Assembly: GCF_003334385.1 (NCBI RefSeq)
Contig: NZ_QOWN01000022.1
Source of the DNA: Escherichia coli
GTDB taxonomy: Bacteria > Pseudomonadota > Gammaproteobacteria > Enterobacterales > Enterobacteriaceae
DNA length: 64,000 nt
Strand: one strand, 5' to 3'
Shown: piece after piece, positions 3,400 through 46,304 of the stretch
Position numbering within the stretch: position 1 is the stretch's first letter
Layout: every line of letters begins with the position of its first letter
Notes under the pieces: generated by a model
What the model saw: the letters and a program-made list of their open reading frames with translations, nothing else
What the model was told of the DNA's origin: nothing
Databases searched by the model: none
Program-made: the position numbers and the translations under genes

Positions 3400-4351
3400 A
3401 CCATTCCTTATGTTTCAGAGGGTTAGCCATGGCACCCAAAATATCAGAAATCACGTTAACAATAATGACCAGTGAGCCACACACCATCACTCCGGCGGAA
3501 ATGGCTGCGTAATCCTGCTGGCGGATGGCGTTAATTAACCAGCGCCCTAAACCCGGCCAGCTAAAAACCATTTCGGTGATCATCGCCAGCGTCAGCATGG
3601 TGGAAAACTGTAAGCCCAGGCGAGGAATAACCGGCGGTAACGCGTTATGCAGAACGTGGCGACGCAAAATAGTAAAGCGCGACAAACCGCGGGTCGCCGC
3701 CGCTTTTACATAGTTCTGGTCATACACTTCGATAGTGCTGATACGCATCAGGCGGATCACTTCAGTTGTTGGCGCAACCGACAGGGTGATCACGGGCAAT
3801 ATCATATGGCGGATTGCGCTCATGATCATTTCATCCCGCCATGGTGAGTCCGAAAGCCAGGCATCAATCAACGCAAAACCGGTAATCGGTTTCACTTCGT
3901 AGAGCAGATCGAAACGCCCTGAAACGGGCAACCAACCTAGCGTGAGTGAACAAAACAGCGTCAACAGAAGCGCCAGCCAGAACACCGGGATTGAAAAGCC
4001 CAGTAAGGCGATGGCGTTGATCAAGTTATCCTGCCACTTATGGCTCGTAATCCCGGCAATCATCCCCACGGGGATGCCAACAATCAGCGCAAAACCGAAG
4101 GCGAGGATGCACAGTTCCATCGTCGCCGGGAAGACCTCTTTTAACTGTTCGGCAATCGGTTGACCGTTAATGCTGGAAACACCAAAATCCCAGTGGATCA
4201 GGCCGTTAAACCAGAACACCCAGGCATTCCACAGTGACGCGCCTTGTAACGGCGCATGAGGGGTGAAATAGCTCAAGCTGAAGCCAACGAAGGTCAGCAG
4301 GAACAAGGTGACAATCAATAACAAAATGCGGCGTAAGGTGAAGATAATCAT
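3386..4351 (-). CDS. sapB: ABC transporter permease SapB
   Basis: 321 aa, DppB/OppB-like permease; 4-nt overlap with sapA. Confidence 0.93.
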
Positions 4352-5991
4352 GGTTTTTTCAGCTCATCCTGTTTCTCGCGATACACCCCAGCAAAGGAGG
4401 CGTTACCAAACGGGCTAAGTACCAGACCTTTGATATCGTACCGATAGGCCTGCAAACGCAATGACGACGCCAGCGGCAAAATGGGCAATTCCTGCGCCAG
4501 AATACTCTGCGCTTCGTCATAGGCTTCAATACGCGCCGCCAGCTGCTGCGAAGAGAGCGCCTTACGCAATACGCTGTCGAATTTCGGATCGCACCAGTGG
4601 GCGAGGTTGGTCTGCGAATGAATTGCCGCGCAGCTCAGTAACGGACGGAAGAAACTGTCCGGGTCGTTACTGTCCGTCGCCCAACCGGATAACGTCAGAT
4701 CATGGCTCATATCCATCAACCGCGCCTCCTGAAAGCGACCTTCTACCGGCACAATCACCACTTTTACGCCAACCTGCGCCATATCCGCCTGAATCAGTTC
4801 GGCAGTTTTCAGTGGACTGGGGTTCCACGCCTGCGAACGTGTGGGCACCCACAGTTTCAGCGTTAAATTTTCCAGCCCCAACGACTTCAACTGTTCGCGC
4901 GATTTCGCCGGATTGTATTCAGTAATTTTAGCCTCGTTGTCATAGGCCCACGAGGCGCGCGGTAAAATAGAGGCCGCCGTTTCAGCCGTACCATAATAGA
5001 TGGATTGCATCAGGCGCTGGTTATTAATCGCCAGTGCCAGCGCATGGCGGACAGCGGGATTATTTAGCGGCGGTTTGGCGGTGTTAAATGCCAGATAGGC
5101 GACGTTCATCCCAGGACGCAGCGTTAAACGCAAGCGCGGGTCGTCACGCAAAATGGATAGCTGGCTGGCAGCAGGCCAGGCCAGAACGTCGCATTCCCCG
5201 GTCAGGAGTTTCGACAGACGTCCGGTGCCGCCGGAGCCTAAATCCACCACTACCTGCGGCATTAACGGTTTACCGCGCCAGAAGTCATCATGACGTTGTA
5301 GGCGAATAAATTGCCCGGCGCGGTATTCCGACAACTGATACGGACCGGTGCCGACCGGTTGACGGTCGAGTTGCTCCTGGCGATCTTCTTTCTCTAACTT
5401 CCGGGCATATTCTGCCGACATGACCGAAGCATAATGGGTTGCGAGGTGCCACAAAAAAGAAGCATCCGGCTGGGCGAGTCGGAACTCAACGGTATGATTA
5501 TCCAGTTTGCGGACGCTTTTCACGTTATCGGCAAATTGCAGGCTGTCGAAGTAGGGGAAGTTGCTGCCGTTGACGTTATGCCACGGGTTGTTGCGGTCAA
5601 AAATTCGCTGGAAGGTAAACACCACATCGTCGGCATTCATTTTACGAGTGGGAGTAAACCAGTCGGTTTTTTGAAACGGAACATCGCGACGCAGGTGGAA
5701 GCGATAGGTCGCGCCGTTGTCGAGTACTTCCCAGCTTTCGGCAAGTTCCGGCATCAGGCGATAGGTATAGGGATCGACATCCAGCAGTCGATCATAAAAC
5801 TGGGCGGCAAGGGTATCGACAATTAACCCACTGCTCGCTTTGGATGGGTTAAAGGTGTTGACTTGCCCGCTGACGCAATAGACAAAACCGCTGTCGCGGA
5901 TATCAGCATGCGGGGGAGATTCAGGCGCGGCGATTGCCTGACCACTCACAAGTCCAGCAATCACCAAAAGAGACGATAATACCTGGCGCAT
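4348..5991 (-). CDS. sapA: periplasmic substrate-binding protein SapA
   Basis: 547 aa with N-terminal signal peptide; family-5 solute-binding protein. Confidence 0.93.
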
Positions 5992-44803: not shown

Positions 44804-45046
44804 TGTTTTATCAGGCTCCTCCAGATAATTGTCGTCATGCCGGAAACCCCTGGCGGGGCTATTTTACCGCGACAATTCATTCAGATCATCAATAGTCAGG
44901 GAAGGAAGTAGCAACATTAGCTAACTAATCAATGCGTTGATTGTAAATCCAGCTAAGAGGTGAGGTTTTCAGAGCAGACAACGGTGAAATGTCATGGTAT
45001 TGTTACGTTTAGGTAACAAGAAATTTGTCTGCACAAGGATTACATC

Positions 45047-45304
45047 ATGATTATGGCGAAACTGAAGTCAGCGAAAGGGAAGAAATTTCTCTTTGGTTTG
45101 TTGGCGGTTTTCATTATTGCGGCGTCGGTTGTGACTCGCGCGACCATCGGCGGCGTTATAGAACAGTACAATATTCCGCTGTCTGAGTGGACGACATCAA
45201 TGTATGTGATTCAGTCATCGATGATTTTTGTTTATAGCCTGGTCTTTACTGTGTTGCTGGCAATCCCGTTGGGAATTTATTTCCTTGGCGGCGAAGAGCA
45301 GTAA
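45047..45304 (+). CDS. ynaJ: small inner-membrane protein (DUF2534)
   Basis: 85 aa, two predicted TM segments. Confidence 0.8.
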   Translation: MIMAKLKSAKGKKFLFGLLAVFIIAASVVTRATIGGVIEQYNIPLSEWTTSMYVIQSSMIFVYSLVFTVLLAIPLGIYFLGGEEQ

Positions 45305-45313
45305 GTAAAAAAT

Positions 45314-45333
45314 AGGCCCGATAACTCGGGCCT
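45314..45333. terminator. hairpin between convergent ynaJ and uspE (likely uspE terminator)
   Basis: aggcccg-ataact-cgggcct with an A-run upstream, i.e. U-run after the hairpin on the minus strand. Confidence 0.5.
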
Positions 45334-45353
45334 TGTCAGTTATTGAAGAGTCG

Positions 45354-46304
45354 TTAATCGTCTTCTTCGTCATCCAGTTCAACGGGTGTCTGATACTGGT
45401 CAGGTTTAATGACCAGCAGGTCGCAGCGAAGATGATCAATCACCTGTTCCGCCGTGTTGCCGAGGAATGCTGCTGAAATACCGGTGCGTCCTACCGTGCC
45501 CAGAACCACAATCCCCGCCTGTAAGTGCTCCGCCAAATCAGGAATCACCTCTTCTGGCAGACCTTTTTCTACGTGCGTCATGTTTTCATTAATGCCGAAT
45601 TTCTGCCGCAGGGCTTTCATTGCCAGCAAATGTTGCCCACGAATGGCATCGTTATAAACGCTCGGGTCAAATTCCGGCAGTTCAATCGCGATATTAATTG
45701 GCGTTACCGGATAAGCGCCAACCAGATGAACTTCGGTATGGTTGACTTGTTCTGCCAGTTCGATCGTCTCTTTGACCAGTTTTTCATTGAGCGCATTATG
45801 ATACGGCTCTTCACTGGCGAGATTCACCGCCACCAGCGCCTTGCCTCCTTCCGGCCACGGCTGGTCTTTCACCATCCACACCGGGCTTGGGCATTTGCGT
45901 AACAGATGCCAGTCCGTTGGCGTAAAAATCACCGCTTCCAGACGGTCATGTTGGTGCGCCATTTTTAGCACCAAATCGTGTCCGCCGCTGATCACTTCCT
46001 GAATGATGGCTTCGAAAGGACGGTTATGCCAGACCACTTTAATTTCAATGGGAACGCCAGCATTGAGATAATATTTTGCCTGCTCGTGGATCCAGGCTGT
46101 ACGCTGGCTGATGACGCCCTGACGCATAGCGGTACGTTCGTCCGGGGAGAGCAGGGTGGTCATTTCGTATGAGAAGTCATAGATCGGCAAAAAGGCTTTA
46201 ATTTTGCCACCAATCCGTTGATGTAAATAAACAGCTCGCCGCAATGCTGGTTGGTCGTCCTGGTTAGGATCGATAACAACGAGCATGTTCTGATACATAG
46301 CCAT
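45354..46304 (-). CDS. uspE: tandem-domain universal stress protein E
   Basis: Start set at [13 protein letters not shown] (316 aa). Confidence 0.9.

Follow-up and report, generated by a model that had tools for sequence, protein, structure and literature searches.

The ynaI-ynaJ spacer of a close natural relative of Escherichia coli K-12: an unoccupied, most likely ancestral, form of the K-12 IS5F site

The window, i.e., the whole 64,000-nucleotide stretch of E. coli DNA analysed here, carries the divergently oriented genes ynaI and ynaJ, both of which are intact (Table 1). YnaI is a small-conductance mechanosensitive channel, and the homologs of the inner-membrane protein YnaJ carry PF10749. 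The minus-strand ynaI ATG ends at 44803 and the ynaJ ATG begins at 45047. The first-pass annotation, made from the letters alone, had described two divergent starts separated by 243 bp, with neither a transposase reading frame nor IS terminal inverted repeats between them; its coordinates proved exact, and both the open reading frame listing and the repeat search agree with its view of the spacer. No reading frame of at least 40 aa lies wholly within 44804-45046, and thus there is none for an InsH-type DDE transposase (approx. 326 aa). A repeat search of 44600-45250 returned inverted-repeat arms of at most 8-9 nt, none with the geometry of IS ends, and the 16-bp terminal inverted repeats of the approx. 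1195-bp IS5 (GGAAGGTGCGAAYAAG) were not found in the same interval. Likewise, MG1655 IS5F had no blastn match in the entire 64-kb window, and a permissive Rfam search (E up to 1) of 44600-45400 found no RNA family. Downstream, ynaJ and uspE are convergent, with 49 bp between their stop codons (45305-45353) and a hairpin, GGCCCGataactCGGGCC, in the gap; ynaJ is named in two bioRxiv preprints that deal with collisions between RNA polymerases and with bidirectional termination.

Table 1. Coordinates (window positions) of the genes, sequence elements and insertion sites discussed in the text
Feature	Position	Strand	Remarks
ynaI	43772-44803	-	Open reading frame; RefSeq annotation in matching genomes; MG1655 coordinates correspond; small-conductance mechanosensitive channel, 343 aa, intact
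ynaI-ynaJ divergent intergenic spacer	44804-45046		243 bp, uninterrupted; empty IS5F site
Conserved ynaI-proximal block	44859-44893	-	TAAAAT, -10-like, 44861-44866; TCATCAAT 44886-44893
Poorly conserved spacer centre	44904-44928		Low cross-genus conservation; four independent IS insertions in other genomes
IS1A insertion, strain WEM25	44904-44912		9-bp duplication
IS1A insertion, strain NCTC9966	44914-44922		9-bp duplication
IS5 insertion, K-12	44921-44924		
CTAA tetramer, K-12 IS5F target	44921-44924	+	Duplicated in K-12; overlap of MG1655 prefix and suffix
Unrelated 0.9-kb IS5-family element, strain FDAARGOS_943	44925-44927		At CTA; ends GGCTGTGTCCCTTAAT
6-4-6 palindrome AATCAATGCGTTGATT	44927-44942		Just right of the IS5 target; repeat search
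Predicted ynaJ core promoter	44974-45003	+	-35-like cAGACA in GCAGACA 44974-44980; 17-nt spacer; extended -10 TGGTATTGT 44995-45003
7-6-7 perfect palindrome TTGTTAC-GTTTAG-GTAACAA (TTGTTACGTTTAGGTAACAA)	45000-45019		Overlaps predicted ynaJ -10 and start region
ynaJ	45047-45304	+	Open reading frame; RefSeq annotation; DUF2534 inner-membrane protein, 85 aa, intact

The spacer contains CTAA at 44921, 44925 and 44953 and TTAG at 44917 and 45009. CTAA is the usual target of IS5, as the first-pass annotation had pointed out, and the first CTAA of the CTAACTAA doublet is the site used in K-12. Five such tetramers exceed the 0.69 expected from the window-wide rate (P=0.0007), whereas 2.45 are expected from the composition of the spacer itself (42% G+C; P about 0.10). 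The number of tetramers is therefore unremarkable, because it does not rise significantly above what an AT-rich spacer of this composition would be expected to hold, and an enrichment of target sites was rejected.

In the MG1655 chromosome (NC_000913.3), IS5F is annotated at 1396044-1397238 (1195 bp, insH4, b1331), between ynaI (b1330) and ynaJ (b1332), which bears out the statement in the first-pass annotation that an IS5 copy (insH) separates these genes in MG1655. The MG1655 intergenic region measures 1442 bp, i.e., 243 + 1195 + 4, so that it equals the window spacer plus 1199 bp (IS5 and a duplicated CTAA). It shares its first 121 and its last 126 bases exactly with the window spacer; the shared prefix runs to 44924 and the shared suffix begins at 44921, and the two overlap in the CTAA at 44921-44924. 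MG1655 reads TTAGCTAA followed by GGAAGGTGCGAAC at one side and GCACCTTCC followed by CTAACTAATC at the other. With the ends of IS5F being GGAAGGTGCGAACAAG and GGAAGGTGCGAATAAG, the left junction is TTAGCTAA joined to GGAAGGTGCGAACAAG and the right junction is CTTATTCGCACCTTCC joined to CTAACTAATC, which identifies an IS5 bounded by its terminal inverted repeats, with CTAA duplicated as the 4-bp target. The reference thus consists of the window sequence, an element and a second, directly repeated copy of a 4-bp YTAR target, and the alignment that the first-pass annotation had proposed as a check gave what it predicted, an insertion of approx. 1.2 kb with a 4-bp duplication. Both the relationship between the two sequences and the target duplication are direct observations. 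The same genes (mppA, ynaI, ynaJ, uspE, fnr and ogt) flank the site in both chromosomes, and the window flanks are 99.97-100% identical to those of MG1655 (left flank, a single mismatch over 4044 bp; right flank, no mismatch over 2762 bp); what differs is that the 1195-bp element is missing from the window and that CTAA stands there singly, where MG1655 has two copies. The K-12 copy of IS5 at this site is already in the literature: it is one of eleven catalogued in BW25113 (PMC11677980), and, in a W3110 stock, recombination between “the known IS5 element b1331” and another IS5 copy close to ogt deletes ynaJ-uspE-fnr (PMC2072959), a report that also refers to earlier fnr deletions in MG1655 stocks. 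Both the insertion and its part in deletions of the fnr region are therefore published, and the window spacer represents the unoccupied allele, which is the common one, at a K-12 IS5 site that is well documented; it is an ordinary strain difference rather than a novelty.

The frequencies of the two states were observed across 5426 complete E. coli genomes, of which 5423 contain the sequence surrounding the spacer and about 5056 (93%) have the spacer uninterrupted. A 200-bp query across the MG1655 left junction was fully covered in 355 genomes, and a 60-bp query confined to the K-12 junction in 356. An even sample of 58 of these 356 junction carriers was inspected, and among these 58 the occupied state was restricted to the K-12 laboratory lineage, as judged by name or genome size; a natural, non-laboratory carrier may exist among the 356. 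The empty state is widespread. The sampled carriers include MG1655, W3110, BW25113, DH1, WG1, J53, MC4100, XL1-Blue, HMS174, NCM3722 and NEB strains; the others have K-12-sized genomes (4.5-4.9 Mb) and are labelled as laboratory strains or transconjugant recipients. At the site itself, nothing distinguishes the window from the empty spacer of most natural E. coli, such as SCU-118, ET210, HL15 and EC06. SCU-118, ET210 and other isolates agree with the window at every base of the 1201 bp around the spacer (100% identity), and in HL15 and EC06 the empty spacer lies inside a near-identical 25-kb stretch; over such 25-kb stretches, however, no complete genome matches the window perfectly, and even the best ones are off by a few bases.

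In E. albertii, E. fergusonii, Salmonella enterica and Citrobacter amalonaticus, ynaI and ynaJ are likewise divergent, with 238-243 bp of uninterrupted spacer between them. Because of this conservation in relatives and of the genome frequencies, the empty site is most likely the ancestral state and IS5 an insertion of the K-12 lineage. Downstream of uspE, E. fergusonii ATCC 35469 (locus 4066-5348) has a beta-lactamase-family gene and a resolvase gene where E. albertii, Salmonella and Citrobacter have fnr, and its ynaJ is called with a 30-residue N-terminal extension. The Enterobacter roggenkampii homolog of YnaJ (78% identity) is encoded away from ynaI; its gene lies between ecotin and MFS transporter genes, near a phage-type integrase gene.

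The window strain itself is very close to K-12. Positions 75-64000 are colinear with MG1655 1351194-1416319 and 99.96-99.97% identical to it; this stretch takes in the beginning of the Rac prophage, which has the same location in both. The first-pass annotation had suggested a lineage other than MG1655, citing, besides the spacer, an intact ycjV and a frameshift in puuC; this suggestion was right, but the lineage in question is a very near one. Over the 64 kb, 19 SNPs and three 1-bp indels, the latter all within homopolymer runs, separate the window from MG1655. Natural isolates equal or surpass K-12 as matches, namely SW070917, 4/2-1 and PSS-16 over the left 25 kb and HL15, SF10, A134_1EC and EC06 over the right 25 kb. 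A member of the K-12 lineage would show near-zero SNPs and share its IS positions; what is found is 19 SNPs, three indels, no IS5F and an intact ycjV. It follows from the SNPs and indels, together with natural isolates that match as well or better, that the window strain is a close natural relative of K-12 and not K-12 itself.

The individual differences are as follows. In puuC, a CCC to CC deletion at 12160 relative to MG1655 shifts the frame; the best natural matches span 25001 bases for a 25000-base query, which fits a deletion private to the window strain, and the change may be real or a homopolymer sequencing error. In ycjV, an extra G at 30655 (GGGGG to GGGGGG) undoes the MG1655 frameshift that makes ycjV/ymjB pseudogenes there. 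In Rac, a 1-bp deletion in an A run lies at 61622, between the ralR and recT homologs, and here too the best natural matches are longer than the query by one base. The Rac cryptic prophage (intR, xisR, ralR, recT, recE side) occupies approximately 59581-64000, at the same ttcA site as in K-12, with coordinates derived from colinearity with MG1655 1411899 onward. Positions 1-74 have no counterpart in the MG1655 sequence upstream of 1351194 (fabI-ycjD intergenic region); because natural isolates match the window from base 1, or only from base 53 or 75, this segment is a variable junction beside repeat-like sequence.

An empty site in so close a relative of K-12 could also have arisen if the window strain descended from K-12 and IS5F had been excised precisely, so that a single CTAA was restored. 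Such an event leaves exactly the window sequence, indistinguishable from a site that was never occupied, and both the near-identity of the flanks and the shared position of Rac are in keeping with it. However, 19 SNPs, three indels and differing first 74 bp are far above the divergence among K-12 sublines, the window ycjV is the intact allele, and IS5F is kept in all sampled K-12 sublines, the early stock WG1 included. Moreover, isolates from duck, human and wastewater sources match the window at least as well as K-12 does, and the site is empty in four of them. Excision in a K-12 derivative is therefore highly improbable. Less probable still is a loss in assembly, in which the real genome would have an IS5 copy that disappeared through repeat collapse. 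IS5 is a multi-copy repeat of the kind that short-read assemblers handle poorly, and the three homopolymer indels hint at some sequencing error; however, repeat trouble breaks contigs at IS ends and does not leave the two flanks cleanly joined through a single CTAA, and the joined sequence is base for base the allele of about 5000 complete genomes. The preferred reading remains that of a natural strain whose site was never occupied.

An alignment of the spacers of E. coli, E. albertii, E. fergusonii, Salmonella and Citrobacter (Enterobacter roggenkampii was left out, as its ynaJ context differs) shows two conserved zones near the genes and a variable centre. On the ynaJ side, GCAGAC (44974-44979) and CATG.TATTGTT (44993-45004) are invariant and have a fixed spacing in all five groups. 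In the window, GCAGACA, 14 nt and then TGGTATTGT lie about 45-75 bp upstream of the ynaJ ATG and could form a core promoter. This candidate scores 8/12, and a simple sigma-70 consensus scan of the spacer, with a cut-off of 9/12, found no promoter that reached it. On the ynaI side, a block about 55-90 bp upstream of the ynaI ATG includes TATTTTACC, which is conserved in the cross-genus alignment and reads TAAAAT on the minus strand; no matching -35 element was found 16-18 nt from this TAAAAT. From the conservation pattern, we infer that both blocks are promoters, and the spacer most likely is an intact divergent promoter region. Compared with shuffled sequences, the predicted ynaI 5' leader showed no better folding (z = -1.0), and a leader structure was accordingly discarded as a candidate, as was a terminator-like hairpin on the plus strand at 44838-44855, which faces no gene end.

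Two palindromes in the spacer were considered as possible regulatory sites. The outer parts of the one at 45000-45019 (TATTGTT..C....A.GTAA) are partly conserved across genera, and this palindrome is possibly an operator; its arrangement, TTGTTAC-N6-GTAACAA, has a spacing that is not typical of CRP, DeoR or GntR operators. The other palindrome, AATCAATGCGTTGATT, is unconserved outside E. coli and E. albertii and, for this reason, is probably not a conserved regulator site. As an FNR/CRP-type site it was rejected because its half-sites are in inverted order and because of the same lack of conservation. Together with the CTAACTAA doublet, it belongs to the poorly conserved centre (roughly 44900-44970).

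Every IS insertion found in the spacer falls in this variable centre, with four independent events within 25 bp (Table 1). Most simply, this would mean that the spacer tolerates insertions only between the two putative promoter-proximal blocks. It is also conceivable that 44904-44928 is a true IS hot spot, beyond mere tolerance, where, for example, bent or easily melted DNA draws transposases. The clustering of four independent insertions of three kinds of element within 25 bp speaks for such an attraction, as does the presence of the CTAACTAA doublet. However, these are four events among about 5400 genomes, in which only insertions that survived selection are visible, and the spacer on either side of the centre is conserved and probably does not withstand disruption. 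A hot spot thus seems unlikely; it is compatible with the main explanation and would add to it. Insertions were also seen within the flanking genes, with IS1B inside ynaJ (45115-45122) in strain P24_WM1_05.20 and ISVsa5 (IS4-family) inside the 5' end of ynaI (44734-44746) in strain Res13-Lact-PEB01-20.

The preferred explanation can thus be put together as follows. IS5 (IS5F, insH4) would have entered the K-12 lineage at the CTAA at 44921-44924 and duplicated it, whereas the window strain, a natural close relative of K-12, would never have received the element. The spacer would be a compact divergent promoter region, with a conserved block on the ynaJ side, another on the ynaI side and a variable, AT-rich centre that, we infer, tolerates insertions. 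It is very probable that this combined reading is correct, i.e., that the 243-bp spacer is the unoccupied and most likely ancestral state, that IS5F is a K-12 insertion and that the spacer most likely serves as a divergent promoter region.

In K-12, IS5 insertions upstream of glpFK, fucAO, bglGFB and flhDC alter the expression of neighbouring genes. The flhD case is listed among the references of PMC5009759. IS5F resembles these insertions in that it also lies at a CTAA in a (predicted) promoter region, whereas the window has no IS5 at all. In K-12, the element cuts ynaI off from everything to the right of 44924, and its right end points towards ynaJ from about 80 bp upstream of the start predicted for that gene. 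A literature search found no report of an effect of IS5F on ynaI or ynaJ expression. It has been reported for K-12 that ynaI mRNA is readily detected while native YnaI protein is below detection, that ynaI is apparently controlled by EvgA (PMC3508906), and that ynaJ is highly expressed (bioRxiv 10.1101/2024.03.27.586983); ynaJ is also a predicted CRP target in genomic SELEX (PMC3105977). All of these expression, EvgA and CRP data come from an IS5-bearing background. It might thus be supposed that IS5F changed ynaI and ynaJ expression in K-12, that the K-12 data are unrepresentative of the species, that the window spacer is the native layout and that the 25-bp centre is a genuine IS hot spot. 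Taken jointly, these suppositions are tentative and on the whole doubtful.

The empty site matters little beyond strain typing, for which it offers a quick marker separating K-12 from its close natural relatives. In some K-12 stocks, ynaJ-uspE-fnr is deleted by recombination between two IS5 copies (PMC2072959), and the window strain, having no IS5F, lacks one of these two partners. K-12 work on YnaI and YnaJ expression has used a putative promoter region split by a 1.2-kb IS5, whereas about 93% of E. coli genomes have this region intact. If IS5F did change the expression of its neighbours, the K-12 data touched would be the apparent EvgA control of ynaI, the undetectable native YnaI and the high expression of ynaJ.
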